Shown: in pieces, positions 4,451-50,263 of the stretch
How positions within the stretch are numbered: position 1 is the first letter of the stretch
How the letters are laid out: every line of letters begins with the position of its first letter
NCBI GenBank assembly: GCA_900548385.1
Contig: URKJ01000008.1
Location: 43,585 to 107,584 of the forward strand
Source of the DNA: an uncultured bacterium
GTDB lineage: Bacteria; Verrucomicrobiota; Lentisphaeria; Victivallales; UBA1829
Direction of reading: 5' to 3'
DNA: 64,000 bases
Notes under the pieces: generated by a model
The model's input: only the letters and a program-made list of their open reading frames with translations
Told to the model about the DNA's origin: nothing
The model's database searches: none
Program-made: the position numbers and the translations under genes

Positions 4451-5179
4451 TCAGTAGTTATACCAATAAAAGGGACTTTTCCCCCGTGCATCCCAGTTGC
4501 CGATGCCGAAAAATGGAGGCCGGAGAGTCGCGGCATGGCCGTCCCCGAAAGCAAAATTCATTCTCCGCTCATGCCTGAAATGCCATTGATAAACACCGGA
4601 AGCGGTATGATTTTCAAAATCACTGGCAGGCATGATATTCAGAATCGAAGTATTATAGTCGAATGTGTGAGTTATTCCTTCTGCCGTAATAAAAATCTTT
4701 GTCGGAAACTTCATTTTCCCCGCCTTGTAGACAAGCGGAGCCTCATTGGGATTTCCAAATACAAAATAATTTGCCGTATAGTTCGCCTGCGTATTGTTCG
4801 GGTTGAGACTGTTCGCGGGACAGACAAAAACTTTGGAGACAGGATTTGTCAGCCTGTCTTTGTAACACTGCGTCATACCGGGAACAAGGTAGGGAGTAAT
4901 CATATGAAGTCCCTGAAAACCTGTGTTATACCAACGCCCCGCATCTCCGGCAGCCTCTATACTCCAGTTGTGCACGGGCGCAACCAGCGGATAGAAGTCG
5001 TTATAATCGCCGAGATAACTTTGAAATGCGGTTGCAAGCTGTTTCAGGTTTGATGTGCATTGGATCAAATGGGCGGATGCCCTTGCTTTCTGCAGCGCCG
5101 GCAACAGGATGCTGATAAGGATCATGATAATTGTAACGACGACAAGGAGCTCTATGAGGGTAAAATAGTTTCTTCTCAT
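4451..5179 (-). CDS. Prepilin-type N-terminal cleavage/methylation domain protein with H-X9-DG motif (pseudopilin-like)
   Basis: N-terminus [29 protein letters not shown] is the class III signal/pilin motif. The C-terminal [12 protein letters not shown] matches H-X9-DG. Start chosen at the Met preceding the FTLIEL motif; the track ORF extends to 5245. Confidence 0.85.
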
Positions 5180-5228
5180 AATATTCCTTTTCTGGTTATA
5201 TGCTCGGTGCATGACGTAACGGTTTTGC

Positions 5229-6263
5229 TTATGTTTTTTTCTCATAAAATTCCTTTCCTATTGTTATATGATTTATTTTGCGTCCATCTGAAGGATGAGC
5301 CGCGATAAATTCCTGACGGGTATAAAAACGGATATCCACTGTTTTGACAACCGGGCCCTGCGGATGCTCTGCAAGATCAATGATCGTATCGGTAAGGGTG
5401 CGGACGAATTTAGAAAAACGGTTATCAATGATTCCTGTGACATGCGGGTCGTCAATAAAGTCTTCCGGAAAATTGTAATTTGTTACGATTTTTGGATGAA
5501 GGACTGTGTTTTCCGTATAAACCTTTTCCAACAACCTCTTGACAGTCCAACAGGATGCAATATAGAGTCCTTCCGTTTTCCGGCATGCCTCCAATGCATA
5601 GCCGGACAAAGCCTCGTTGTCATCAGCCCGGCAAGTTATGTCCGGTACAGTTATCCGGATTTTTTCTTTCTGGGCTGCTTCCTGAAAGACAGAAAGGTTC
5701 TGCCGGTCGGAATCAATCAGGGTAATTTCCGTAATGCCGAGTGATTGAAAATGTGCCGCTATTTCATGGAAAATTGCTCTCATGTCCACCACAACCGAGC
5801 TGTAAGACGGATGTGTCCTCCGAAAAATGATCCCCGGTCGGTTGCCGATAATTCGAGCAAAATCGTCCGGATCATTGGCGATGTCTGCGGTAAGGATTAC
5901 GGCGTCTACTCCTCGGTCAAGAAGAAGCTGGAGAGCCTGTTTTTCTTTCCGGCAATCCCATTCGGTCAGCGCAAGAAGAATCTGATAGTTTTGCTGACTG
6001 CTATATTTCAAAACCTGTTCCGCTAAATGATGAAAAAACGGATCGCTCAACCCGCCAAGCACCATTCCAATCGTTTTGCTGCGTCCCTGTCGTAAAACCC
6101 GGGCGGCGTGCGAGGGGCGGTATCCAGTCTCGGCCACGAGCTGGTCGATCCGCTTCCGTTTTTCGTCGGTAAGCCTGGCCCGGCGATCATGATTCAGATA
6201 CATGGATACCAGAGCTTTGGAAACTCCGGCCTGTTCCGCGATATCTTTCAACGTGATCCTCAT
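5229..6263 (-). CDS. LacI-family transcriptional regulator
   Basis: N-terminal [54 protein letters not shown], followed by a periplasmic-binding-protein-like C-terminal domain. 344 aa. Confidence 0.9.
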
Positions 6264-32661: not shown

Positions 32662-34392
32662 TTAGAACTGCGGGAGCGGGAATGCCGCAGTAAACGCTTT
32701 CACTTCTTCGGCGATGGCGGCAAGCGCGGCATCGTCGTTGCGGTTTTCCACGGCGCGGTTGATGAAATCGGCGATCCTGAGCATTTCCGGCTCTTTCATG
32801 CCGCGGGTCGTGACGGCGGGCGTTCCGATACGGATACCGCTGGTGACCATCGGTTTTTCCGGATCGAACGGGATCATATTCTTGTTGACGGTGATGAGCG
32901 CTTTGTCGAGCGCGGTGGCGACGTCTTTTCCGGTCGCCTGTTTCGGACGGAGGTCAACGAGCATGAGATGGTTGTCCGTTCCGCCGGAGACGATGCGGAA
33001 GCCTTTGTCCACAAGAGCTTGGGCAAGAACCGCCGCGTTTTTGACAAGCTGTTCCTGATAGGCCTTGAATTCCGGTTTCAGCGCTTCGCCGAAGCAGACG
33101 GCTTTTCCTGCAATCACATGCATCAGAGGTCCGCCCTGAATGCCGGGGAATACTTTGGAATTGACTGCTTTGAGGTACTGCTCCTTGCAGAGAATGAGCC
33201 CGCCGCGCGGCCCGCGCAGAGTTTTGTGCGTGGTCGTCGTGACAATGTCGCAGTACGGAACCGGGGAGGGATGGATGCCCGCGGCGACGAGTCCGGCGAT
33301 GTGCGCCATATCGACCATCAGCTTGGCGCCGACGGAGTCCGCAATTTCACGCAGTTTTGCAAAGTCGATTGTGCGCGGATAGGCACTGGCTCCCGCAACG
33401 ATCAGAGCGGGTTTGTGTTCGTTTGCGAGCTTCTGGAGTTCTGCATAGTCAATGGTTTCGGTGTCTTTGTTGACGCCGTAAGGGACTATGTTATAGAGCT
33501 GTCCGCTGAAATTCATCTTGTGCCCGTGGGTCAGATGTCCGCCGTGGTCAAGACTCATTGCGAGGATGGTGTCGCCGGGGTTGATGAGTGCAAAATATGC
33601 TGCCATGTTCGCCTGGGAACCGGAGTGCGGCTGAACGTTTGCCGCTTCCGCTCCGAAGAGTTTGCAGGCGCGTTCAATCGCGATCTTTTCCACTTCGTCG
33701 ACGAATTCGCAGCCGTTGTAGTAACGTTTGGCGGGATAGCCTTCCGCGTACTTGTTGGTGAGTACGGAACCCTGGGCGGCGCGGACAGCGCAGCTGGTGA
33801 AGTTTTCGGAGGCGATCAGCTCAATGCCTTCAAACTGGCGAACCGCTTCCCTGTCGATCCATTTGGCAATTTCGGGATCGCTTCCGCGGAGCGCGGCGAT
33901 GTCGTCATAAGAATCTTTTTCAAGCTGGGTGAGGCGTCTTGCATGGCGTCCGCCGACGCAGGTGAATTCCGTTCCGAGCCATGTGCTGATGATTTCGCAG
34001 ATTTCGTCGCGGGTGAGATAATCGGCGGGGATCACGAGAACGTTGGTGCAGTTGTGGTCACGGCTTGCCTTGGCGAGTTTGGTGCTGTAAGCGACGGCGG
34101 CGCGGACTCCGTGGAAACGGTTTGCCACGATGGCCATTCCGATGCCGGAGCGGCAGATCAGGATGCCTTTTTCAACCTCGCCGGCGGAGACCGCACGGGC
34201 AAGGACGGCGCCGAACGTGTTGTAATCATCTTCGGGATCGAACTTGGAGGGACCGCAGTCGATTACGTCGAGCCCTTTGGCGGAAAGCGCCGCCGTGATC
34301 TCTTTTTTGAGTTCGAAACCACCGTGGTCTGCGGCGATCGCGATGCGTTTGTCGTCTTTGTTCCAGTCGGAGATTGATTTCATTCGTGACAT
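32662..34392 (-). CDS. glyA: Fusion protein: ribose-5-phosphate isomerase B (RpiB/LacAB) domain plus serine hydroxymethyltransferase
   Basis: Residues about 15-160 carry [14 protein letters not shown] and [17 protein letters not shown] (RpiB). From about residue 165: [25 protein letters not shown] (PLP Lys) and the rest of a full-length SHMT. One uninterrupted 576-aa frame. Confidence 0.9.
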
Positions 34393-35028: not shown

Positions 35029-35748
35029 TCAATTTTTTTTCAGGGCGGAGATCAGATTTTCCAGAGTTTCCCGGCTGCTGACGGCATTGGAGTCTTCCGG
35101 TGCTGCTTTCTTTTCCGGTTTGGCAGTCGGAGTTTCCCCGTCGCCGTTCTTCTTTTCCGGATCGGAGACAGGAGTTTCCTCTTTGAAACTTCCGCCGTTT
35201 GCAAGATACAGAATCGCGGGGTATTGTTCCATCCAGACCGCCTGGGCAGGTGTCTGCGGCGTTCCGCATTGGACGGTCCGGATCATCCGCGGAAGCACCA
35301 GATTGGAGAAGCGGAGAACGTTGGGCTGGGAGACGAGAGGTATTTTGTCCACCAGAGCAACCGAGGACAGACCGAGTGTCAGCACCGCCATGCAGGCGAG
35401 CGCTCCTCCGTAGACACAGAGGAACCGGAGAACCATTGAAATATGCGTCGGATAGCTGATATGCCGGTTATCCGGCGGAAACATCTGCGAAAACGCCGCA
35501 CAGAGAATGATCATCAGGATCAGACCCGCTCCCGGCAGAGCGATCAGGGAGACCCAGCCGCGTCCGGATTCCGGCAGATACTGCAGGAGCTTCTCTATCA
35601 CATAAGGCTGGAGCCCGAATACCGTACAGCCTGCCAGCAGGGCGCTGCAGAAAAAAATCCATGCCCGTTCAAAACGCCAGCGGGACGTACAAAAGGCGAT
35701 TATCAGCGGAATTCCGAAAAAAACGATCAGTTCAAGCATTTTCTTCAT
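35029..35748 (-). CDS. Multi-pass membrane protein with a charged C-terminal tail (CvpA-like topology, tentative)
   Basis: About four hydrophobic segments (LELIVFFGIPLIIAF, WIFFCSALLAGCTVFG, WVSLIALPGAGLILMIILCAAF, LRFLCVYGGALACMAVLTLGL), then a soluble Lys/Glu/Pro-rich tail. The start is uncertain (35748 or 35739). It overlaps the end of the upstream gene. Confidence 0.6.
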   Translation of the reverse strand: MKKMLELIVFFGIPLIIAFCTSRWRFERAWIFFCSALLAGCTVFGLQPYVIEKLLQYLPESGRGWVSLIALPGAGLILMIILCAAFSQMFPPDNRHISYPTHISMVLRFLCVYGGALACMAVLTLGLSSVALVDKIPLVSQPNVLRFSNLVLPRMIRTVQCGTPQTPAQAVWMEQYPAILYLANGGSFKEETPVSDPEKKNGDGETPTAKPEKKAAPEDSNAVSSRETLENLISALKKN

Positions 35749-38700
35749 CCTCCATATTGGGAAGTGCGTTATTGATCTCATCCAGTGCCACGACACCTTT
35801 GGCAGCCAGACAGTATGCCGTGATGCGGAGCAGGTTCATGCGGCCGCCGCCGTTTGTACAGCATTTCAGCCAGTCGGCGGTCGGGAGCACCGAGCCGTAA
35901 ATCACGACCGGGCGGTCTTCTCCGCTCTGGGAACATTCCATGCAGCCGTTTTTGGCGCGGAGATTGTTGTCCGGCAGATTCAGCCGGCGGAAATCTTCCC
36001 GGTTTTCCTCCGGGAGTTCCGCGTGTACGGCACAGCTGCAGAGTTTATGAAGCATCAGCGGGGAGACGATCAGTTTCAGGGTTTCCAGCATCTGCGTTTC
36101 TGAGATTCCCGCATCCAGACAGAGTTTTACCGCTTTTTCCGCAGTCGGCTGTTCCAGAAGAAGAACGATCGGTTTCACTTCCGAGAGACGGAATGCGCAG
36201 CGGATGGTTGCGGCGTCGTTCCGTTCCAGCGTGATGGCGGCGGCGCGGCAGTCCGGCAGGGCGCCAAGCAGCTGTTCAGGCGTGATTTTGGCGCTCAGGT
36301 TCGCTTTGAGACGCGGAACCTCGTTGGATCCGGCCGGTTCGTTGCCGTCGCCGATCCAGACCGTGCTGCCGAGTTTTGCGGCGAACTGTTCAAGCAGAAG
36401 CGAAATGAATGTCCGTCGCCCGTTGCCCGGCTTTCCGGTAACGATGATCAGGCCGTTCGGCTTGGCAAGGATCGAATCGACGGCTTTTTTTCCTTCCGGG
36501 GAAAGTACGAGCTGCTGGAAGCTGTGAAGCTCATCCTGAGCCCGTTTAAGCGTCAGCAGGGCGCGTTCGCCCTGAACTCCCATTCCGATCGTGCTGATCA
36601 GGACCCGTGTGCGGCTGTGTTCTTTCTGAATGGTGAAACAGCCGTTCTGCGGGTTGACTTCCTCGTAGGCGTCGAGTCCGGCAAGATTTTTCAGGATGAT
36701 GAGGATATTGCGTCCGGTCGCCATATCAAGCTGCATCAGCTGCCGGTCCTGTTTCGCCTGTTTGAGGATGATCTGATAGTTGGTTCCCGTCGGCGAGAAC
36801 AGAATTCCCGAACAGTGACGGGTGAGAGCCTGCGTGAGTATGCCCCGGCAGAGGTTGAGGAAGAGTGCGTTTTCCGGGGATGGCGCCTGGGCGCTCTCTT
36901 CGCCGTCGGCATTGAAGAAGCGCAGCGGATCCGTTTTCACCTGATCAGAGGTGCTCAGCATTCTGCTGATCCACGGACGGGCAAACGTGTACAGTTTCTG
37001 AAGCAGGATACCGATCGGCATCAGCGGCCCGGCAAAGAACGAGATCAGATTCGCCGCTTTGATCCGCGCGGTTTCTTCGCGGGGGAGCATGCGGAGCGAA
37101 AGCAGACCGCATGCGATCCAGATAAACCAGAAGACCAGGCAGGGCCACGAAAGCAGTATTTTCTGATCGCCGTATGGCGGGACGATCTCTTTTCCGGAGC
37201 TTTTTTCTCCGGCCAGTTCTTTGACAGGTTCTTTTTTGAGTTCTTCAAGAGTCTGTTTGATACTGGCGGTAAATTTGTTTTTTTCCGGAAGCTGGCCCAA
37301 AAGGTCATCTGTGGGGACAACTCCCGCTTTGAGCAGCGGAATAATGAGGTTGAACCGTTCCTGCTGCAATGCCAAGGACAGCGCGCTTTCCTGATCCAGA
37401 TTCACGGCATTGGGATTGCACGGAACCGCAAGCAGGGATTCCAGAAATTCGGTTTCCCCCTTGTTGAGACGCAGGAAGAGAATCAGCGCGGTGTCGTGAC
37501 GGCTGTTCAGTGCGGCTGCGGAAACTTTATGCGACAGCAGATAAGAGGCGGATTTCTCATTTTTGGCGAGAAGAGCCGCATGGAGCGGAGTATTCCGCAT
37601 CCAGTCGCGACAGTTCAGATTGGCGTTGTTTTCCACGAGCAGTTTCAGAGCATCGGGGTTGTTGACCGCTTCAAAGATCAGCGGAGTGCCGAGTTGGTCG
37701 CCGACATTGGGATCCGCTCCGTTTGCCAGCAGTTCTTTCATCCGCTTGAGATCGTTGGCTCTCAATGCCTTCTGAAGCAGAGTGGTGCCGTCATTCAACG
37801 GCATGTTGAGGTTTGCTTTGTGCTTGATCAGCAGCTTGAGCAGCCAGTCGTAATCGTTGTGTGCGGCGAGGTCAAGCAGGCTGTATTCTCCGTAGCGTTC
37901 ATTGGGAGTGATATAGCCTTTTTCAAACAGCAGTCCGAGAATTTCGGCGTTTTGAGATTTCAGGCTTTCCGCGAGCGCCGCCCGGATCAGCGGTTTGCGC
38001 TTTGCCGCTTCGGTTTTGTTCAGGAGGTCTCCGATCTCCTCTTTCCGTTCTTCCCGGACGTAAGAGGCAATGTGGGAAATCTGCTTGGGGTCGGGGCCGC
38101 AGGAGCGGAATGCGGCGGCGATGACTTGAAGCAGGATAAGGAGTATGGCGACTCCGGCGACAGCAAAAATGATCCGTTTTTTGTGCACTTTGAGGAAAAC
38201 GAACCGTTCCTGCGGCGGCATCTGCATCGGCGTTTCATCCTGCGGGTCCGTCTGCGGACCGCAAAGTTGATCCGCCAGACTCTTGCCGGCGGAGATCAGT
38301 TTTTCATCCACTGCAACGGTATCCGTTTTGATCCCGGCGAAAATATCGGCTGCGGGCGCGGGAGCCGCCTGCGGAATTGTGAGCGTCGGAGCCGCTGTGG
38401 AAGGGGGCGGCTGGGGGTGTGCGGGAGCCGGTGCAGCGGCTGCCTGCGGATTGAGGGTGAGCTTCGGCGGCTGGGGGACGGCTGCCGAAGGAGTTGCCGG
38501 AGCTTGTGCGAAAGACGGAGCGGCTGCCGCGGGAGCGGAAGCCGCCGGTTGCGGATTGAGAGTCAGTTTTGGCGCCGCGGGAGCTGCCGGAGCAGGAGCT
38601 GGTTTGGATTTTGCCGGTTCGTTTTTTGCCGAAGGCGCTGTGCGGAACCGCGGGATCGGCGGAGCTGCCGGAGCGGGAGCCGGGGCAGGAGCTTCCGCAA

Positions 38701-38992
38701 CGGGGACAGCGGGAGCCGGGGCAGGTGTTTCCGCAACGGGGGCAGCGGGAGCCGCCGGGGCAGGTGCTTCCGTTGCCTGTTTCAGTGTGATTTCCTGTTG
38801 ACAGGACGGGCATTGCACCTGTTCGCCCTCCATCCACATTTCCACTTTGAGTTTCTGGTTGCAGTTGGAACAGCGGCAGGTGATCGGTGTCTGTTCCGCC
38901 GTCTGTGCGGTCTGGCAGTGCGGGCAGACGACCTCGCTTCCCGCCTGAGTATCCGCTACGGAGAAAAAATTTTTACATTGTTTACAGAGCAT
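35732..38992 (-). CDS. 1086-aa mosaic protein: double zinc ribbon, Pro/Ala-rich spacer, TM segment, ankyrin repeats, further TM segments, degenerate GspE/PilB-like ATPase domain
   Basis: CKQC..CPHC and CSNC..CPSC zinc ribbons. Ankyrin-type repeats such as DGTTLLQKALRANDLKRMKELLANGADPN and RNTPLHAALLAKNEKSASYLLSH. The C-terminal region resembles T2SS/T4P assembly ATPases (NPQNGCFTI, RVLISTIGMGVQGERALLTL), but the P-loop is GKPGNGRRT (36410..36436). AAGGA RBS before the ATG. Confidence 0.8.
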   Translation of the reverse strand: MLCKQCKNFFSVADTQAGSEVVCPHCQTAQTAEQTPITCRCSNCNQKLKVEMWMEGEQVQCPSCQQEITLKQATEAPAPAAPAAPVAETPAPAPAVPVAEAPAPAPAPAAPPIPRFRTAPSAKNEPAKSKPAPAPAAPAAPKLTLNPQPAASAPAAAAPSFAQAPATPSAAVPQPPKLTLNPQAAAAPAPAHPQPPPSTAAPTLTIPQAAPAPAADIFAGIKTDTVAVDEKLISAGKSLADQLCGPQTDPQDETPMQMPPQERFVFLKVHKKRIIFAVAGVAILLILLQVIAAAFRSCGPDPKQISHIASYVREERKEEIGDLLNKTEAAKRKPLIRAALAESLKSQNAEILGLLFEKGYITPNERYGEYSLLDLAAHNDYDWLLKLLIKHKANLNMPLNDGTTLLQKALRANDLKRMKELLANGADPNVGDQLGTPLIFEAVNNPDALKLLVENNANLNCRDWMRNTPLHAALLAKNEKSASYLLSHKVSAAALNSRHDTALILFLRLNKGETEFLESLLAVPCNPNAVNLDQESALSLALQQERFNLIIPLLKAGVVPTDDLLGQLPEKNKFTASIKQTLEELKKEPVKELAGEKSSGKEIVPPYGDQKILLSWPCLVFWFIWIACGLLSLRMLPREETARIKAANLISFFAGPLMPIGILLQKLYTFARPWISRMLSTSDQVKTDPLRFFNADGEESAQAPSPENALFLNLCRGILTQALTRHCSGILFSPTGTNYQIILKQAKQDRQLMQLDMATGRNILIILKNLAGLDAYEEVNPQNGCFTIQKEHSRTRVLISTIGMGVQGERALLTLKRAQDELHSFQQLVLSPEGKKAVDSILAKPNGLIIVTGKPGNGRRTFISLLLEQFAAKLGSTVWIGDGNEPAGSNEVPRLKANLSAKITPEQLLGALPDCRAAAITLERNDAATIRCAFRLSEVKPIVLLLEQPTAEKAVKLCLDAGISETQMLETLKLIVSPLMLHKLCSCAVHAELPEENREDFRRLNLPDNNLRAKNGCMECSQSGEDRPVVIYGSVLPTADWLKCCTNGGGRMNLLRITAYCLAAKGVVALDEINNALPNMEDEENA
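38676..38780 (-). repeat. In-frame 36-nt tandem repeat (about 2.8 copies) encoding a Pro/Ala-rich spacer
   Basis: Units 38676..38711 and 38712..38747 differ at a few positions. The third unit has a 3-nt insertion. They encode the PAPA(V/A)PVAE(A/T)PAPA stretch of the 1086-aa protein. Confidence 0.8.
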
Positions 38993-39021
38993 TTTATGTG
39001 TCGATCCTTACATGTTTGTCG

Positions 39022-41196
39022 TCAGAGAGCTTGATATGCGGCAACGTCTTCCGCTGAAACTTCGCCATCCGCACAAAGTTTGTCCAGAGAACTTCTCATC
39101 GTCGTCATGCCGATGGAGGCGGAGGTTTCAAGAACCGAGAGCAGCTGATGGGTCTTGCCTTCACGGATCAGCGCCTGAACCGGCGGAGTGCCGATCATGA
39201 TCTCGAACGCCGCCACGCGGCCGTGTCCGTTCAGACGCGGGAGCAGACGCTGTGCCACGACTCCGGTCACGATATTGGAGAACTGCTGGCGGATCTGGTT
39301 CTGCTGCGCGGACGGGAAGGAGTCGACGATTCGCTCAACGGTCTGCACGGTGTTGTTGGCGTGCAGGGTCGCAAGCACCAGATGACCTGTTTCGGCGGCG
39401 GTGATTGCCGTTGCGATCGTTTCCGTATCGCGCAGCTCGCCGACGAGGATGATATTCGGCGCCTGACGCATTGCCGCGCGCAGTCCGCCTGCGAATGAAA
39501 GCGTATCCCGTCCGAGTTCCCGCTGTTCAATGAAACTGGAAATGTTCTCGTAGGTGTATTCGATCGGGTCTTCGATTGTGATGATGTGCTTGTTCTGGGT
39601 TTTGTTGATCTCGTTCAGCAGACTTGCGAGCGTGGTCGATTTACCGCTTCCGGTCGGTCCGGTGACGAGAATCAGCCCCTGTTTTTTGCTCATGAGCTGC
39701 GAGAGGACCGGAGGCAGGTTCAATTCCGCCGGAGTGGGGATGCGGTCCTGGAGTACACGGCCGACCATTGCGGGGGTTCCGCGCTGGAAGAATGCGTTCA
39801 GGCGGAAGCGCTGAAGCTGGAATTTTTTCCCCGGATCCTGACTCGGCAGCTGCGCGGTGATGGCAAAGTCGAGTTCGCGTTTTTCCTCGTATGTGACCCG
39901 CTGCTGTCTGCCGATGATACTGTAAATCAGGCGCTGAACATCTTTCGCCGCCAGTTCCGGCATACTCAGCGGAGTGAATTTGCCGCGTTTGCAGAGGACC
40001 GGCGGGGCGTTGACCACAAGCAGAAAGTCGCTGGCGCCGGAATCTGCCGCGGCTTTGAAAATATCGCGCATGTCGAGGCTGTCGAGACGGCTGGAGCGTT
40101 TGCTCTGTTCCTGTTTTTCCTCGTCGGAAAGCCCGATGTTGCGGAAGAACAGTTTCAGTTCATCGGGATTGTCCGACGCCTTCAGGGCGGTTTCTTCCGT
40201 GATCGCTCCGGATTTGACGAGACGGAACAGTGCGGTATTGAAGTTCTGCATTCCGAACTGCCCTCCGAGACGGATGGAGAGTTCCAGCCCGCTGATGTCC
40301 TGACGTTCAATCTGCTTTTTCACCGTTCCCGTGCCGACCAGGATCTCCTGTGCGGGGACAAGGCCGGAGCCGTCGGCGCGCGGAAGCAGGCGCTGGGAGA
40401 TGACCGCTTCCAGAACCTGCGCAAGGTTGTAGGTCATCTGTTCGCGGGAACCTTCCGGGCACATGTTGATCAGACGTTTCACGGTTCCGGCGGCGTCGCT
40501 GGTGTGGAGAGTCGAGAAAACGAGGTGACCGGTCTGTGCGGCGGTAACCGCGATCTGCATCGTTTCCAAATCGCGCATTTCACCGATCATGATGACGTCG
40601 GGGCTTTCGCGCAGGGCATTGCGGAGCGCTTCGCCAAAGCCGGAACCGAGTGCGTCGACTTCACGCTGGGAGATCAGTGACAGCTTATCCTGATGGAGAT
40701 ATTCGATCGGGTCTTCCAGTGTCAGAATATGCTTGCGGCTGTTGGAGTTGATATAGTCGATCATGGCGGTCAGTGTGGTGGACTTTCCGCTTCCGGTGGT
40801 TCCGGTCACGAGGACCAGCCCGCGTTCCAGCATGGCGATCTTGCGGATCGTATCTGCGAGGCCGAGCTTTTCAAAGTCGAGTTTGCCGCCCATGCGGATC
40901 GGTCTTGCCACGAAGCAGGGACCGTTGACCGTTTCAAAAAAGTTCATACGGAAACGGTTCTGCGGGTCGTAAATATAGGAGATGTCGTAGCCGCGGGTAT
41001 GGGTATATTTCTCTTCCCCCGCCGTTCCGATCAGGGAGATTCGGAACTGGTTGATCTCTTCCGGCGTGATTTCCGGGAACTCCACCTGAAGCATTTCTCC
41101 GCCGGAACGGCAGGACGGGACTTTCCCGGAGGAAATAAACAGGTCGGTTACCTTGTTTTCCAGAGCGAATTTCAGCAGTGTGACGATGTTTTCCAT
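39022..41196 (-). CDS. pilT: Tandem-domain PilT-family ATPase (N-terminal PilU-like module fused to C-terminal PilT-like module)
   Basis: Module 1 has GTTGSGKSTT, DVIMIGEMRD and GHLVFSTLHT. Module 2 has GPTGSGKSTT, NIILVGELRD and GHLVLATLHA, plus an AIRNLIRE-like motif (ALIREGKTHQ). They are joined by an acidic/Ser-rich linker SDEEKQEQSKRSSRLDSLD. A single 724-aa frame. Confidence 0.9.
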   Translation of the reverse strand: MENIVTLLKFALENKVTDLFISSGKVPSCRSGGEMLQVEFPEITPEEINQFRISLIGTAGEEKYTHTRGYDISYIYDPQNRFRMNFFETVNGPCFVARPIRMGGKLDFEKLGLADTIRKIAMLERGLVLVTGTTGSGKSTTLTAMIDYINSNSRKHILTLEDPIEYLHQDKLSLISQREVDALGSGFGEALRNALRESPDVIMIGEMRDLETMQIAVTAAQTGHLVFSTLHTSDAAGTVKRLINMCPEGSREQMTYNLAQVLEAVISQRLLPRADGSGLVPAQEILVGTGTVKKQIERQDISGLELSIRLGGQFGMQNFNTALFRLVKSGAITEETALKASDNPDELKLFFRNIGLSDEEKQEQSKRSSRLDSLDMRDIFKAAADSGASDFLLVVNAPPVLCKRGKFTPLSMPELAAKDVQRLIYSIIGRQQRVTYEEKRELDFAITAQLPSQDPGKKFQLQRFRLNAFFQRGTPAMVGRVLQDRIPTPAELNLPPVLSQLMSKKQGLILVTGPTGSGKSTTLASLLNEINKTQNKHIITIEDPIEYTYENISSFIEQRELGRDTLSFAGGLRAAMRQAPNIILVGELRDTETIATAITAAETGHLVLATLHANNTVQTVERIVDSFPSAQQNQIRQQFSNIVTGVVAQRLLPRLNGHGRVAAFEIMIGTPPVQALIREGKTHQLLSVLETSASIGMTTMRSSLDKLCADGEVSAEDVAAYQAL

Positions 41197-41570
41197 GAGT
41201 TAGGCCTGTTCGTTTAAGGTTGTTTCCGGCGATCCGGACGGCAGACGCCTGTCTGCTGCGGTCCCGTTTATCTTATTGCTTTATTGTGTGACAGAATTGT
41301 TTTCTCCGGTTGTTCATGACAAATCATCGGAAAACAATTTGCCATAATCGTATTCGTCATATTATAGCATGAATACATGGAAAAATCAAGAGCATTTCAG
41401 GGATTCTCATAAGAAACAGAGGGCTGAAACCGTTTTCCGGAACAGAAAATGCGTATTCAGAATATGGGTTATCGGGATGACCGCTTGTGGAATATTTTTA
41501 TGAGGTGTAAAGAATTTTGATAAAATTGCAAACCTGTAATTTTTTTGTCATGCTCCCGTTATCTGGACAG

Positions 41571-41629: not shown

Positions 41630-43018
41630 ATGAACACATACGGAATACGGACTTTGAAAATGATCACATGGATTGTCGCCGGACTGTCGCTGGCGGGAGC
41701 GTTTCACATGCTGTTTACGATGAATGTCAGCTCTTTCGTTGTCAACGGGTTCAGTTTTGTGCTGCTGATGTTCGGGCTGATCGTCTCCTGCATCACGCTG
41801 GGGTATTTTCTGCTTCAGGGGATTCTTGCCTGGTTTTACAAGGAGGCGCCGTCTCTGAACGATTCCGAGTTGCCGAAATGCACCGTGATCGTTCCCGCCT
41901 ATAACGAAGGGGAATACGTCGCGACCACACTCCGCAGTGTGCTGGAGAGCGATTATCCGGCGGACAAGTTGGAAGTCATTGCCGTGAACGACGGTTCCAG
42001 GGATGATACGTGGGACTGGATCTGCAAGGCTGCCCGGGAGTTTCCGGGCAGGATCGTCGCCAAAAATCTGATCCGCAACGGAGGCAAACGCCGGGCGCTT
42101 TATGAAGCGATCAAGATTGCGACCGGCGATATTGCCGTGACGATCGACAGCGATTCCGCGATTACGGTTGATGCGCTCCGCAGGATTGTCGCGCCGTTTG
42201 CCAAACCGACAGTCGGCGCGGTTGCCGGAAATATCCGGGTGACCAATCTGGAAGAGGGAATGATTCCGAAAATGCTGGATGTTGCGTTCGCATTCGGTTT
42301 TGAGTTCATCCGTTGTGCGCAGAGTCTGATCGGTTCGGTGCTCTGCACGCCGGGAGCGCTCAGTGCATACCGTCTTTCTGCAATCCGCCCGCTGATGGAG
42401 GAATGGGTCAATCAGACGTTTATGGGGCGCCCTTCCGGTATTGGCGAGGATCGCGCGATTACCAGTATGCTCCTCCGGGAAAACTGGCGCGTGGAGTTTC
42501 AGCATAACGCGATCGCATTCACCAAAATGCCGGTTAATTATAAGACGCTCTGCAAGATGCTGATCCGTTGGACGCGCAGTGATATTCGTGAAAATCTGAT
42601 TATGCTCGGCGTGGTTCTCCGCCGGTTCGAACCGTTCAATCCGGAACTGCTCGGGTTGCAGCTGAACCTGATCGTGCAGAGTATTGCGATCCTTCTTCCG
42701 ATCGTTTTCATTCCGATGGGGTTGTTCGGGTTTGTGGTCAATCCGCCGCTGTTCCTGTACTACACGGTGATCAGCACAATGGTGTGGTCTGTGGTTCCCG
42801 CGGTGATCTATGGCATGCGTTACGGCTGGGGGGAAGCGGTATGGTCGTTCATCTATGGCTTGTACAGCATCCCGTGTCTCAGCTGGCTTCCCGTTTATTC
42901 GCTGATTACGGTTCAGAATTCCAAATGGATGACACGCGGAGTGCCCGTGAAACCGGCTCCGATCCTTACGATCACACAGCCGATTCCCGCCGGAGCGGTC
43001 CGGGACCGTGCTGCGTAA
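41630..43018 (+). CDS. Membrane-embedded processive family-2 glycosyltransferase (HasA/NodC/chitin-synthase-like)
   Basis: VIVPAYNEGEY, IAVNDGSRDDT, VTIDSDSA (DxD), GEDRAITS and LIRWTRS (the QxxRW-type motif). Hydrophobic segments flank the catalytic domain at both the N- and C-termini. Confidence 0.85.
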   Translation: MNTYGIRTLKMITWIVAGLSLAGAFHMLFTMNVSSFVVNGFSFVLLMFGLIVSCITLGYFLLQGILAWFYKEAPSLNDSELPKCTVIVPAYNEGEYVATTLRSVLESDYPADKLEVIAVNDGSRDDTWDWICKAAREFPGRIVAKNLIRNGGKRRALYEAIKIATGDIAVTIDSDSAITVDALRRIVAPFAKPTVGAVAGNIRVTNLEEGMIPKMLDVAFAFGFEFIRCAQSLIGSVLCTPGALSAYRLSAIRPLMEEWVNQTFMGRPSGIGEDRAITSMLLRENWRVEFQHNAIAFTKMPVNYKTLCKMLIRWTRSDIRENLIMLGVVLRRFEPFNPELLGLQLNLIVQSIAILLPIVFIPMGLFGFVVNPPLFLYYTVISTMVWSVVPAVIYGMRYGWGEAVWSFIYGLYSIPCLSWLPVYSLITVQNSKWMTRGVPVKPAPILTITQPIPAGAVRDRAA

Positions 43019-43580: not shown

Positions 43581-43744
43581 TTCCTTCCGGTTCTGTTTCC
43601 GGATAAAATAGCAGATTTCCGGAAAAAATCAAATTTACCGTATTTTCTGTCCGTTTTTCTCCGCTTTTTATTGGACAATATTACGATTATGTGTTATTTT
43701 TTCCGTTGTTTTCCGCTTTGTCCAAACGCATCGGGCGAAGTGCG

Positions 43745-43752
43745 TGTATAAT
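43745..43752 (+). promoter_or_regulatory. Candidate extended -10 promoter element (TGTATAAT)
   Basis: TGTATAAT lies 35 nt upstream of the ATG at 43787, which has an AAGGAG RBS at 43775..43780. Confidence 0.4.
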
Positions 43753-43786
43753 ATGGTCAGACAGCCAACTTAACAAGGAGTTTGTC

Positions 43787-46249
43787 ATGCATCTGAAAAA
43801 TGTGACTTTGGAACTCAGTTCCAAGCCGTTCCGGGATGAATCCGAGGCGACCATGTATTCGGTCTGCCGCCACATGTTTACGCAGTGGAAGGATCTGACC
43901 GACACGGCGGATGTGGTGTCGGTCATGCTGTGGACTTCGGACGGCAGTGAGATTTTTGAATATACCGGAGATCTCTCTCAGCGTTTTGAATGGGCATACT
44001 GGTGCGGATGCGCCAATCATTGTACCCGTCCGGAAAATCCGACGGAACGGGAGAAGCATCATACGCATAATTTCCCCGTCAAATATATTCCGGAGGCGGG
44101 GCCGCGGCCGTATTCCTGGTTGAAACGCCTGATCGAAGTTCTCCGCGAAACCGGACGGGAGATTACCGGAAAGCCGATCCGCATCGGTGCAACGTATGAT
44201 AACGGTCCGGAGTTTGCCATCTCCAAATTCAAGTATAAGACGCATCGGGAGATTGCGCAGGGGCACACCATGTTTCCGAACAGTGTCGTTACCTGCACCG
44301 CACGCCTGCACGCTGATCCGCAGCCGTATGCCGGATTTCCCGGCGGGATTCCGGAAGGAACGTCGGTCGGCACATTTCTTGCGAAACAGTTCAAGGCGTT
44401 TGCCCGTGACCTTGGTTTTGATTATCTCTGGCTTTCCAACGGAATGGGCTTCGGTACGGAGACCTGGGGGATCACCGGGATGCTTTTTGACAAAAAGCGG
44501 TTTTATCCGGAAAAGGCGGATGAAGCCGCACAGAAAATGCTGGATTTCTGGAAAGATTTCACCGAAGCATATCCGGAATGCGTGATCGAAACGCGCGGAA
44601 GCAATTTTTCCGCCGGAGTGGAGATCGCCACGGATGCCTGTCCGATCCGCGAACTGTACCGCGATTACAAAATCGCCCCGCCTGTGAACTCGCCGTGGGC
44701 GGCGTTGAATTTCAATACCGGGCTTGAGATCGTCGCGTGGATGTCTCATGTGGCGGAACTGCCCGACGAGCGTTTCCCGTTCCGCTTCTATATCCATGAT
44801 CCGTGGTTTATGAACAGCCCGTGGCTTGACCGCTACGGCAGGGAGCCGTGGGATCTTTTCCAGCCGCTGAGCATCGGACGGATCGACGGGAAAGGGCGCG
44901 TGAGCATGGCAAACAGCGTTGCCATGCTGTCGGTCGACGATACCTGGGGGCGGATGCCGGATCAGGTTCCCCGTGAAGTGATTCCGCTTCTGCACGATGC
45001 GTTCGACAACGGTCCCGACCGCCCCGGTCCGCTTGTCTGGATCTATCCGTTTGACGAATATTCCGAACTGGTGCGCGGTGCGGATCCCCGGCCGGATGTC
45101 GTATTCACCGAGGATATGTTCATCGGCGAATGCGTACAGGAGGGGGTGCCGCTGAATACGGTCGTCAGTACAGGCAATTTCCGCCGGCTGATGGCGGACC
45201 GCAGCCGCTGTCTGGATTCATCCGTGCTTGTCGTTCCCGTTTCCGCCGCGGATGGCGCGAATATGGATGCGTTGGAGCATTTCCTCGGAAACGGCGGCAA
45301 AGTTCTGTTCTACGGAGCGCTTCAAGGCGCGTCGGAACGACTCCGTTCTCTGCTTCAGCTGAGATGCGATACCGCCGTATCGGGAGATGTGACGATTGAA
45401 AACCGGATGCCGGGGGACTGTTATCAGGGGGCTTCTCCTGCCGCGACCGCGCATATCCTGCCGCAGTTCGCCTGCGGCGGACTGGTCGAGGTTCCGGCGG
45501 AAAATGCGGCATCGAAGCCGTGTGCCTGGGCAGTCCGCGACGGAGTCCGCCGTGTCGCCGCATTGCGCCGCACTCTGGAAAACGGGGCGGAGATCGGATT
45601 CGTCCGTGCGATTCTACCCTCCGCCGCGGAAGTGAAGCCCGGACGCGGATTCGATTACGGCAGCCGGACGGAGATTTATCCGACGCCGCGGCTCATGCGT
45701 GATCTGCTGGCGGAATTCGGCTGGAAGATCCGCTGTTTCGCTTACAATGAAGAAACGCAGATGCCGCGGACCTGTATTTCCCGGCACGATAACGCATTCT
45801 TCTTCACCGTCTATGCTCCCGACACAACGGCGGAAATGCGTGTGAATTCTCCGTATGGCGCGCCGCTGTTGAGCGAGATGGAAACACGGATCGACGAAAA
45901 CGGCGATGCGGTCTGGCATCCCGGAAAATGCTGGCACAGGGAGTGCCGCTGTTTCGTGAAACAGTCGCAGCCGTCGGTGATCTCCGCAAAGATTCAGCAT
46001 CAGGCGTTTCCGTACTATTCGGAGATCGGACGCCGCAACTATTCCGGCTTCCGCGATGCGGAAGTGCGGTTTTTCGTGCCGGAGTCGGCAAAGGGCAAAC
46101 TGGAGATCGTCAATTCTCCGGACAGTGCGGAGTACAGGCTGTTCTCCCTGACGCCGGTTGAATATGAATGGGAGAAGACTCCCGCCGGAACCTGTGCGGT
46201 TCTGAAACATGTAAACGGTTATCTTTACTTTTCCATGGTGAACGAATGA
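43787..46249 (+). CDS. Cytoplasmic 820-aa protein of unknown function (possible glycoside hydrolase/phosphorylase-like multidomain enzyme)
   Basis: Strong RBS and no signal peptide. Aromatic/Asp-rich stretches such as DLGFDYLWLSNGMGFGTETWG and IHDPWFMNSPWLDRYGREPWD. A mid-region (SVLVVPVSAADGANMDALEHFLGNGGKVLFYG) is reminiscent of the GATase-like trimerisation domain of GH42/GH112 enzymes. I cannot assign a family by eye. Confidence 0.6.
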   Translation: MHLKNVTLELSSKPFRDESEATMYSVCRHMFTQWKDLTDTADVVSVMLWTSDGSEIFEYTGDLSQRFEWAYWCGCANHCTRPENPTEREKHHTHNFPVKYIPEAGPRPYSWLKRLIEVLRETGREITGKPIRIGATYDNGPEFAISKFKYKTHREIAQGHTMFPNSVVTCTARLHADPQPYAGFPGGIPEGTSVGTFLAKQFKAFARDLGFDYLWLSNGMGFGTETWGITGMLFDKKRFYPEKADEAAQKMLDFWKDFTEAYPECVIETRGSNFSAGVEIATDACPIRELYRDYKIAPPVNSPWAALNFNTGLEIVAWMSHVAELPDERFPFRFYIHDPWFMNSPWLDRYGREPWDLFQPLSIGRIDGKGRVSMANSVAMLSVDDTWGRMPDQVPREVIPLLHDAFDNGPDRPGPLVWIYPFDEYSELVRGADPRPDVVFTEDMFIGECVQEGVPLNTVVSTGNFRRLMADRSRCLDSSVLVVPVSAADGANMDALEHFLGNGGKVLFYGALQGASERLRSLLQLRCDTAVSGDVTIENRMPGDCYQGASPAATAHILPQFACGGLVEVPAENAASKPCAWAVRDGVRRVAALRRTLENGAEIGFVRAILPSAAEVKPGRGFDYGSRTEIYPTPRLMRDLLAEFGWKIRCFAYNEETQMPRTCISRHDNAFFFTVYAPDTTAEMRVNSPYGAPLLSEMETRIDENGDAVWHPGKCWHRECRCFVKQSQPSVISAKIQHQAFPYYSEIGRRNYSGFRDAEVRFFVPESAKGKLEIVNSPDSAEYRLFSLTPVEYEWEKTPAGTCAVLKHVNGYLYFSMVNE

Positions 46250-49543: not shown

Positions 49544-50263
49544 TCAGTCCTTTTTATAATGCCAGAATGTCTGGAAGCCGGCAGCGTTGGAGTTGACGCT
49601 GGCGCCCGCGTAACGGGTAGGATTGCTCAGACTCCCCGCGTGTCCGTCCAGATAGAGAATATTCGGGTACAACTGATGCCGGAAGGAGGCGGCGAGCAGA
49701 TATTTCCGGTAGCTCGCGGCATGGCTGACCATATAGTTCGTCCCGGAACCGTCCCCGGTATCATCGGCGGTGTCTGCCATGATGCAGATTTGCGACAGAT
49801 TTTTCAAGCGGTCTGGTTTCAGAAAATTAAGGTTGAAATTGAAGCCGAAACTGTAAAAACCCGGATTGCTCGCAAGCCCGTCGTCGGACGGATTGGAGTC
49901 CGATGGACAGAGCAGGAGTTTCGCCATGGTCTCTCTGGGAACCTGGACGCCGTTGACAAACGGGCTGCTGTCGTAACGGACCCATGGACGGGTTCCGGAA
50001 AGCACGGTGCTCGGCATGGCGCTGGAAAACAGAAAACCGTCGTTTGCATCCGTATAGAAACTGCAGAATGTTCCGATCTGTTTCAGATTCCCGGTGCATG
50101 CGATTCTGTTTGCTCTCATCCGTGCGCGGTTCAGGGCCGGAAGCAGCATTGAAACAAGTATTGATATGACAGAAATGACGATCAGAAGTTCTATAAGAGA
50201 AAAGTGTCGGCATCTGCCGGAAGGAAGTTCGGATTTGAACGGTTTACGGATGAACGGGTTCAT
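49544..50263 (-). CDS. Prepilin-type N-terminal cleavage/methylation domain protein with H-X9-DG motif (pseudopilin-like)
   Basis: [24 protein letters not shown] pilin-type N-terminus and C-terminal [12 protein letters not shown]. The start overlaps the regulator stop (ATGA). Confidence 0.85.

Follow-up and report, generated by a model that had tools for sequence, protein, structure and literature searches.

The 64-kb window considered here, that is, the whole 64,000-nucleotide stretch of contig URKJ01000008.1 that was analyzed, comes from an uncultured gut bacterium of the Lentisphaeria and contains three closely packed minus-strand genes. They encode a double PilT-type ATPase, a large membrane protein with an inactive-looking PilB/GspE-like domain at its end, and a small four-helix membrane protein. 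In the order in which they would be transcribed, with the candidate promoter (the first coordinate being the lower one in each case), the elements are:

41361..41389, minus strand: best sigma-70-like promoter match, TTGATT-17-TATAAT with an extended -10 TG, ~165 nucleotides (nt) upstream of gene 1; a match to the consensus only
39022..41196, minus strand: gene 1, tandem PilT-type ATPase, an open reading frame (ORF) of 724 amino acids (aa)
35732..38992, minus strand: gene 2, multi-domain membrane protein, an ORF of 1086 aa that comprises zinc ribbons, linker, first transmembrane (TM) helix (TM1), ankyrin repeats, second membrane element (the TM2 anchor) and a pseudo-PilB/GspE domain
35029..35739, minus strand: gene 3, diverged CvpA-family four-helix membrane protein, 236 aa, with its start set from orthologues

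A sequence-only reading of this DNA had described three co-directional, tightly packed genes with a 29-nt gap between the first two, and these we confirm. It had also put the overlap between genes 2 and 3 at ~17 nt, and this requires revision. The longest ORF for gene 3 runs from 35796 to 35029 (minus strand), but the orthologues begin with MLELIV, and so the start is taken to be the ATG at 35739, which yields a 236-aa protein and leaves 8 nt shared between its start and the end of gene 2. No minus-strand terminator-like sites were found within the three-gene module. The best explanation for the tight spacing, the single upstream promoter-like site and the lack of an internal terminator-like site is that the three genes form one operon.

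Gene 1 belongs to the PilT/PilU family by score: it matches TIGR01420 (pilT_fam) in two stretches with 796.2 bits, against a cut-off of 319.1. Homohexamer-type members have a single ATPase unit of ~340–400 aa, whereas gene 1 fuses two in one chain of 724 aa, residues ~1–353 and 368–724, each of them a complete PilT. The linker between them (354–367) is of low confidence in the AlphaFold 2 (AF2) model. Mean predicted local distance difference test (pLDDT) is 88.4, and predicted template modeling score (pTM) is 0.50, so the orientation of the two units relative to one another is undefined. All four motifs typical of the retraction ATPases are intact in both halves: Walker A (GTTGSGKST and GPTGSGKST), the Asp box (EDPIE, twice), Walker B (IMIGEMRD and ILVGELRD) and the His box (LHT and LHA). 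The best match in the PDB for the N-terminal half is Pseudomonas aeruginosa PilT (3JVV; 2.4e-76), and for the C-terminal half, Geobacter PilT4 (6OJX; 1.6e-90); the PilU structure 9N32 scores 6e-64 and 2e-74, respectively. The earlier label 'PilU/PilT' was right, then, about the two complete ATPase units, but 'PilU' has been dropped, both halves scoring higher against PilT than against PilU. The AIRNLIRE motif is specific to PilT. The C-terminal half of gene 1 reads VQALIREGK, and the corresponding stretch of the N-terminal half is VKKQIERQD, not recognizable as a motif of this type; an ALRNALRE string occurs at a different site.

The tandem form is not peculiar to this genome. Proteins of 720–748 aa with this organization make up more than 120 clusters, 49–100% identical, and in at least 110 of 120 relatives Walker A, Walker B and the Asp box are each retained twice. 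Every named cluster is assigned to the Lentisphaerae, the Lentisphaeria or the Victivallaceae. Tandem PilT is a Lentisphaeria-wide protein, and it often stands alone.

Gene 2 is assembled from parts of quite different kinds. From N- to C-terminus these are:

38783..38992, minus strand: residues 1–70, two CxxC...CxxC zinc ribbons, predicted to be cytoplasmic and modeled by AF2 as beta hairpins (pLDDT 85–92)
38201..38764, minus strand: residues 77–264, Pro/Ala-rich disordered linker, with pLDDT <50 and many indels among orthologues
38105..38182, minus strand: residues 271–296, transmembrane helix 1, residues 274–292 by hydropathy and 271–296 as an AF2 helix, with KVHKKR on its N-terminal side
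37232..38089, minus strand: residues 302–587, helical and ankyrin-repeat block, AF2 helical repeats with pLDDT >90, probably periplasmic
36956..37147, minus strand: residues 616–679, family-wide membrane anchor, a TM helix (616–635) followed by a hydrophobic helix-Gly-Pro-helix (642–654/657–679)
35738..36922, minus strand: residues 691–1085, PilB/GspE-fold domain (N2 plus C-terminal domain, with tetra-cysteine motif), predicted to be catalytically inactive
36410..36436, minus strand: residues 853–861, degenerate Walker A within that domain, GKPGNGRRT; canonical GPTGSGKT/ST (GPTGSGKTS in an aligned relative)

The Pfam matches bear out the ankyrin/GspE-like membrane protein of the sequence-only reading: Ank_2 at 62.8 bits (cut-off 27.3), with Ank_4 at 43.2, Ank at 41.9 and Ank_3 at 32.4, and T2SSE at 59.1 bits (cut-off 24.9; 3.8e-16). 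The AF2 model has a mean pLDDT of 78, with the folded domains at ~85–97, and a pTM of 0.44. When the C-terminal domain of the model is compared with known structures by Foldseek, PilB, GspE and PilF (5ZFR, 4PHT, 5OIU and 1P9R) align with E ~1e-24 over ~385 columns, and PilT and DotB with ~1e-12. Phmmer against the PDB gives PilF (1.1e-9), followed by GspE and PilB. The resemblance to PilB/GspE thus extends over the last ~390 residues, and includes the tetra-cysteine zinc motif (LCSCA...GCMECS). The differences are no less clear. In Walker A, the catalytic Lys is replaced by Arg, and so is the Mg-binding Ser/Thr; the Asp box, IEDPIE in an aligned canonical relative, reads IGDGNE; and the His of the His box is lost. 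The N1 domain, with which such ATPases bind GspL/PilM, is not present, since the hidden Markov model (HMM) alignment begins at about GspE position 63–79, and the TM helix and the helix-Gly-Pro-helix anchor stand in its place. In this anchor P656 is invariant and G655 nearly so. The NCBIfam equivalogs for GspE and PilB score 49–59 bits, far below their cut-offs of 617–675. Because it fails both the curated cut-offs and the catalytic motifs, lacks N1, and has no platform protein for a neighbor, gene 2 should not be filed as a GspE; it is a relative of GspE by fold.

With several catalytic motifs lost, gene 2 might simply be a decaying pseudo-ATPase without function. Against this, the frame is intact over 1086 codons, and the PilB/GspE domain around the lost motifs is highly conserved and modeled with a pLDDT of ~90. 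The degenerate motif states are invariant in four orthologues, the whole proteins being 59–82% identical by BLASTP, and even in a homologue only 42% identical (L010) the P-loop is kept as GEPGNGRRT. The cluster formed by gene 2 at 90% identity holds 74 member sequences. These data effectively refute decay, and since the altered motifs are themselves conserved, gene 2 is a paralogue under constraint, probably inactive, rather than a pseudogene.

The zinc ribbons and the ankyrin repeats, in contrast to the anchor and the ATPase fold, appear to be late accretions. All eight cysteines of the ribbons are invariant in the four orthologues (the Pfam match, to Zn_ribbon_8, is weak; E 0.0083), and the element is also kept in L011, P0125, P0126, P0127 and P0145. 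The ankyrin block is absent from the homologues L011, P0126 and L016. In the disordered linker a PKLTLNPQ motif (KLTLNPQ) occurs twice both in the window protein and in P0002, and P0003 has one HLTFRTQ; this may be a short linear motif.

Simpler relatives of ~490 aa, described below, offer a guide to how gene 2 might sit in the membrane. In eight of these, the N-terminal tail of 2–9 residues contains no lysine or arginine in total, whereas there are 27 in the loop behind the TM helix and 41 in the segment behind the second hydrophobic element. By the positive-inside rule, we infer that the tail lies outside and both later segments inside. If so, the helix-Gly-Pro-helix does not span the membrane, and the ATPase domain stays in the cytoplasm, where canonical members need it. 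For gene 2, the same reasoning probably places the zinc ribbons and linker in the cytoplasm, given the KVHKKR ahead of TM1, and puts the ankyrin block, which lies between the two TM helices, in the periplasm. The sequence-only reading had the ankyrin part recruit partners; a recruiting domain in the cytoplasm would not agree with this probable location.

With soluble domains predicted on both sides of the membrane, gene 2 might act as a transmembrane regulator: the periplasmic ankyrin block would sense the envelope or a ligand, and the dead PilB-like ring would sequester PilT, or compete with PilT or a true PilB for the platform, and so switch filament dynamics. Cofactors and inhibitors of type IV pilus motors have precedents, among them a complex of PilB, PilZ and FimX (PMC8389850) and a motor inhibitor in Acinetobacter baylyi (PMC8213720). 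Degenerate proteins that stand beside tandem PilT can lack the ankyrin block (L011, L016) and the zinc ribbons (L016), however, and so whatever role they have in common does not need these parts. A pure sensor, moreover, leaves the tight coupling to the CvpA-like protein unexplained. We consider this regulatory role improbable.

Gene 3 has four hydrophobic helices by hydropathy, and the earlier guess that this four-helix protein might be CvpA-like is upheld by profile-profile comparison. On its own, gene 3 has no Pfam match, falling short of the gathering score for Colicin_V (PF02674). Its counterparts at other loci are homologous to it, however, and several of these pass, with 39.8, 38.2 and 32.0 bits against a threshold of 29.3. 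A Colicin_V match is also on record for the partner in L020, and another partner matches the CvpA-like N-terminus of the MarP family model. Aligned by hhalign with the Pfam-positive partners over 154 columns, the subfamily of the window protein reaches a probability of 98.9% (E 1.2e-17), scores of a kind that membrane-protein composition can inflate. Judged by these profiles, gene 3 is a diverged CvpA-family protein. It resembles CvpA, and the CvpA-like membrane domain of MarP-family proteases, in its four helices, as do its orthologues, and differs in its want of a Pfam match and in having a conserved C-terminal segment, VQCG...YPxILYLANGG, and a charged tail.

Finding relatives of gene 2 proved to be difficult. 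Word-indexed searches with the full-length protein returned three clusters, and with the C-terminal part, a single irrelevant PilB; known orthologues were missed. The word index being unreliable for this protein, residues 600–1086 were instead compared exhaustively, using HMMER, with 1.84 billion representative sequences. Six proteins matched at 1e-30 or better. Next came a series of ~490-aa proteins whose alignment to gene 2 starts at the membrane anchor. These have the TM helix, a conserved N-x-A-L-x-x-G-P element and a full PilB/GspE core, with Walker A sequences that range from canonical to degenerate. Named members include a 488-aa protein of Victivallis vadensis (WP_168962201.1), which is degenerate (GPPGSGRTT), and canonical proteins from metagenome-assembled genomes (MAGs) of Lentisphaeria and of a Ca. 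Ozemobacteraceae bacterium. No member of this anchored-ATPase family reaches the NCBIfam cut-offs for GspE, PilB, TfpB or ComGA.

A scan of metagenomes, with a search pattern that favored canonical sequences, returned 80 loci, of which 67 encode family members, and all but one of these have canonical motifs, as such a pattern would tend to ensure. A CvpA-like ORF lies immediately downstream in 53 of the 57 loci that could be evaluated, typically 5–6 nt away, and three of the four that lack one are accounted for by an inserted gene or by ORF-calling artefacts. The same pairing is present in L013, L015, L018 and L020. Prepilin-like ORFs occur within 6 kb in only two or three of the 67 loci, in contrast to the generic PilB loci that the scan also returned, which do have them. 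We know the pair from Lentisphaeria, Ca. Ozemobacteraceae and many unassigned environmental contigs. By these comparisons, genes 2 and 3 are what one lineage has made of a widespread pair. That pair consists of an ATPase of ~490–540 aa, PilB/GspE-like and membrane-anchored, and a CvpA-family protein; as a rule it is catalytically competent and lacks a neighboring PilT. Most members of the pair are canonical in their catalytic motifs, the ~490–540-aa relatives of that kind holding all of them, and several lineages of Lentisphaeria have lost them. The self-contained and unique device of the sequence-only reading does not survive this comparison, nor the Lentisphaeria-wide, often solitary, occurrence of tandem PilT. 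That the combination has not been described before does: a search of open-access papers and bioRxiv found no description of either the pair or the triad.

The pair also has recurrent neighbors of its own. At 27 environmental loci (within L027–L085), a gene for a 158–175-aa FHA-domain protein (PF00498, 4.6e-17; for example L041:3435–3962) lies immediately upstream on the same strand, the anchored ATPase here belonging to a subfamily of ~530 aa. Such proteins beside the canonical pair suggest regulation by phosphorylation, and to that extent speak for a regulatory role of gene 2. This FHA-bearing cluster lies near thrS-infC-rplT-like genes, recognized from their N-termini only. At L090:8492–10618 (Lentisphaeria, P0141-like), the pair is followed by a 708-aa protein with FHA and T2SSE ATPase domains that does not resemble PilT, scoring only 60 bits with the PilT profile. 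Genes for lipid A or the lipopolysaccharide (LPS) core are found one to three genes from the pair in the Lentisphaeria-type loci L015, L016/L017, L018 and L020–L022: KdtA (Glycos_transf_N), Kdo kinase with a glycosyltransferase of family GT4, and, twice, Lip_A_acyltrans. These could reflect retained ancestral synteny, or hint at a role in the envelope.

Does the pair travel with tandem PilT? The sequence-only reading depended on a conserved gene neighborhood, and it does find one. The triad recurs as a unit in four contexts—the window and its close relative L001, L010, L011, and L016/L017—with flanks that are unrelated from one to the next. The tandem ATPases are from 100% down to ~64% identical across the triad relatives, the copy in L016/L017 being left out of this figure. 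L001 shares the flanks of the window, and its gene 2 is 82% identical; in L010, gene 2 is 42% identical and the flanks are unrelated. L002 (59% identical) shows part of the triad, its contig beginning inside the ATPase gene; directly downstream of the module there, at L002:4419–5590, lies an insertion sequence element (HTH_Tnp_1 plus rve transposase). In L011, where the ATPase is 64% identical, the middle protein has zinc ribbons, TM helices and a pseudo-ATPase with the P-loop GDRDGTFT, and no ankyrin repeats. In L016/L017, among kdtA and metG, it is reduced to 538 aa with neither zinc ribbon nor ankyrin repeats, and GPEGSGKRT is kept but Walker B and the His box are lost. A contig that P0010 and P0127 probably share, to judge by its matching length, is also consistent with the triad. 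A second gene order occurs in L086 (5986–9366), where a canonical anchored ATPase is followed by CvpA and then by a tandem PilT cut off by the end of the contig. The first half of that PilT looks degenerate (VGDLPDRD for GE.RD, and no His in the His box), the opposite of the pattern in the window, and a single case.

Tandem PilT is adjacent in about six of about ten distinct contexts with a degenerate anchored ATPase versus one of the 66 canonical metagenome loci, or two of 66 when L078 is included, where a single-domain PilT lies at a distance of 4.4 kb. A link between degeneracy and PilT adjacency is suggestive. It is also confounded by phylogeny: the degenerate anchored ATPases are concentrated in Lentisphaeria, the sole group here that has tandem PilT.

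Across the window, selected ORFs of at least 200 aa were scanned with Pfam; they make up most of those present, and include both strands wherever it was uncertain which one codes. None of them in the 64 kb matched T2SSF, a secretin, PilM/N/O or a prepilin peptidase (peptidase A24), in agreement with the earlier observation that pilus machinery is absent. Type IV filament systems combine a pilin, a prepilin peptidase, a PilC/GspF platform and an ATPase, and locally only genes of the ATPase family are present. The only prepilin-like ORFs are the H-X9-DG (DUF1559) proteins singled out by the sequence-only reading; there are exactly two, at 4451–5245 (minus strand) and 49544–50263 (minus strand), both adjoining LacI/GntR regulators and glycoside-hydrolase or beta-helix genes. 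By implication, genes for a prepilin peptidase and a pilin-handling machine must lie elsewhere in the genome.

On one side, the module is flanked by genes for type III glutamine synthetase (GS-III), GltB/GltD (inferred), a sigma-54 activator, seryl-tRNA synthetase (SerRS), an RpiB-serine hydroxymethyltransferase (SHMT) fusion, and a low-molecular-weight (LMW) phosphatase; on the other, by a divergent glycosyltransferase of family 2 (GT2), a MerR regulator, an isomerase and a beta-helix protein. The GT2 gene (41630–43018, plus strand) is divergent from gene 1 and encodes a multi-pass protein with chitin-synthase/Glyco_trans_2_3 matches. It and the downstream LMW phosphatase were considered as members of the module and rejected, because they are absent from around the triad in L010, L011 and L016; they are kept only in the closest relatives, L001 and L003. 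The fusion, a 576-aa ORF at 32662–34392 (minus strand), joins a LacAB_rpiB domain (9.7e-44) to a full SHMT (3.4e-169), and is also called in L001. Between 23701 and 29620, five long minus-strand ORFs (265–510 aa) lie antisense to probable plus-strand gltB (1504 aa) and gltD (461 aa) genes. The base composition of third codon positions (GC3) would assign this region, 23.7–29.6 kb, to the minus strand; we have rejected this call in favor of plus-strand GltB/GltD because the five minus-strand ORFs have no Pfam match and L001 has a 461-aa GltD-type gene there. At 43691–46249 (plus strand), an ORF of 852 aa has no Pfam match; its counterpart of 820 aa in L001, between a MerR regulator and a sugar isomerase, likewise has none. 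One further relative, the human-gut MAG Lentisphaeria bacterium HGM23471, has contigs 89% identical in DNA to the window. It came from a scan of genome contigs in which, of the orthologue alignment, only the N-terminal zinc-ribbon patterns were used; the other matches were generic GspE genes.

What, then, might the three proteins do together? Our tentative proposal, to which we give something short of an even chance, is that the dead ATPase and the CvpA-like protein make up a dock at which the tandem PilT motor is held to the membrane. The three genes would encode one inner-membrane complex. Its core would be the old and widespread pair: an anchored hexameric ATPase of the PilB/GspE type, translationally coupled to a CvpA-family four-helix protein. 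In this lineage of Lentisphaeria, the anchored ATPase would have lost its catalytic residues, kept its fold, its zinc site and its anchor, and become a scaffold. Scaffold and CvpA-like protein together would tether the soluble tandem PilT to the membrane, and tandem PilT, probably as a trimer of fused dimers and so a pseudo-hexamer, would supply the ATP hydrolysis. The cytoplasmic zinc ribbons and the probably periplasmic ankyrin block, added later, could link the device with signals or partner proteins in either compartment. As for its substrate, a membrane-embedded protein or lipid-linked cargo seems most plausible, and the H-X9-DG prepilin-like proteins encoded elsewhere in the genome are one candidate.

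Several observations weigh against this proposal. Tandem PilT stands alone in L008, L009 and L012; the pair has no adjacent PilT in L015, L018 and L020, even when it is degenerate (nor does it in L013); and in the Victivallis-like L093, a degenerate anchored ATPase occurs with no PilT beside it, and no CvpA-like ORF could be detected downstream. Support for a complex comes wholly from gene order, and AF2 gives no confident placement of domains relative to each other in either ATPase protein (pTM 0.44 for gene 2 and 0.50 for gene 1). In other bacteria, PilT genes are commonly unlinked from pilus clusters, and tandem PilT may be no more than the motor of a type IV pilus or type II secretion machine whose genes lie beyond the window. 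Upstream of the solitary tandem PilT of L008 (a 55%-identity relative), and overlapping it by 4 nt, is a gene for a 249-aa membrane protein (L008:9255–10004) that has no Pfam match and is not CvpA-like.

Taken further, these points suggest neighbors with independent functions: tandem PilT would be the retraction motor of a distant type IV pilus, or of a type II secretion-like machine that handles prepilin-like proteins, and the pseudo-ATPase and CvpA would act in envelope homeostasis. Tandem PilT does occur across the Lentisphaeria, usually with no pair adjoining, and the pair is widespread without any PilT. The two H-X9-DG genes imply a pilin-handling machine elsewhere. Genes for lipid A and the LPS core recur near the pair (L015, L016, L018 and L020), and, in enterobacteria, CvpA has been tied to sigma-E envelope stress and bile resistance, according to a preprint that calls its function 'largely unknown' (bioRxiv 10.1101/2020.09.25.314492). 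What this explanation does not account for is adjacency at very short spacing in at least five diverged contexts with otherwise unrelated flanks, plus the second gene order in L086; these are hard to explain without selection for co-expression. We find it possible, and less likely than the dock. As a whole, the earlier interpretation of a motor with an adaptor is partly supported.

The idea of a catalytically impaired, ATPase-like adaptor, or of a membrane tether, is familiar from type IV filament machines. In the archaellum, FlaH sits between FlaI and FlaJ, and GspL and PilM are tethers for GspE and PilB; in each case a nucleotide-binding-fold protein or tether positions a working hexameric motor at a polytopic platform. 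FlaH is RecA/KaiC-like, however, and GspL and PilM are actin-like, whereas the adaptor proposed here would be a dead paralogue of the motor family itself, with its own anchor and without linked filament subunits. For gene 2, the partner is CvpA-like, rather than GspF/PilC or GspL/PilM, and for gene 1, the neighbors are not pilus genes, but the dead PilB-like membrane protein and the CvpA-like protein. CvpA itself is a broadly conserved protein of the inner membrane. The cvpA gene of Escherichia coli sits in the purF operon and, to our knowledge, does not pair with an ATPase.

ATPases of the PilB/GspE/PilT family are seen as motors of pilin filaments, acting via PilC or GspF. Here, an assembly-type ATPase has a membrane anchor of its own and a CvpA-family protein for its constant partner, and in dozens of lineages pilins and platforms are absent from the neighborhood of the pair. 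The pair might then be an unrecognized, pilin-independent machine of the inner membrane, in which a secretion-type hexameric motor acts on or through CvpA, and of which the Lentisphaeria have a derived version with an inert scaffold and a fused double PilT pseudo-hexamer for an engine. This is a speculation, and we would sooner bet against it than for it. A dead motor paralogue turned scaffold, joined with a fused double PilT, suggests how hexameric motors can be re-wired. Experiments are made feasible by the fact that Victivallis vadensis, which has WP_168962201.1, is in culture, with the proviso that no CvpA gene adjoins the ATPase in the Victivallis-like L093. The existence of a conserved ATPase partner, translationally coupled, provides a concrete, testable hypothesis for what proteins of the CvpA type do, and if an ATPase-CvpA machine that works without pilins does exist, it would be the first mechanistic handle on this conserved but enigmatic family.

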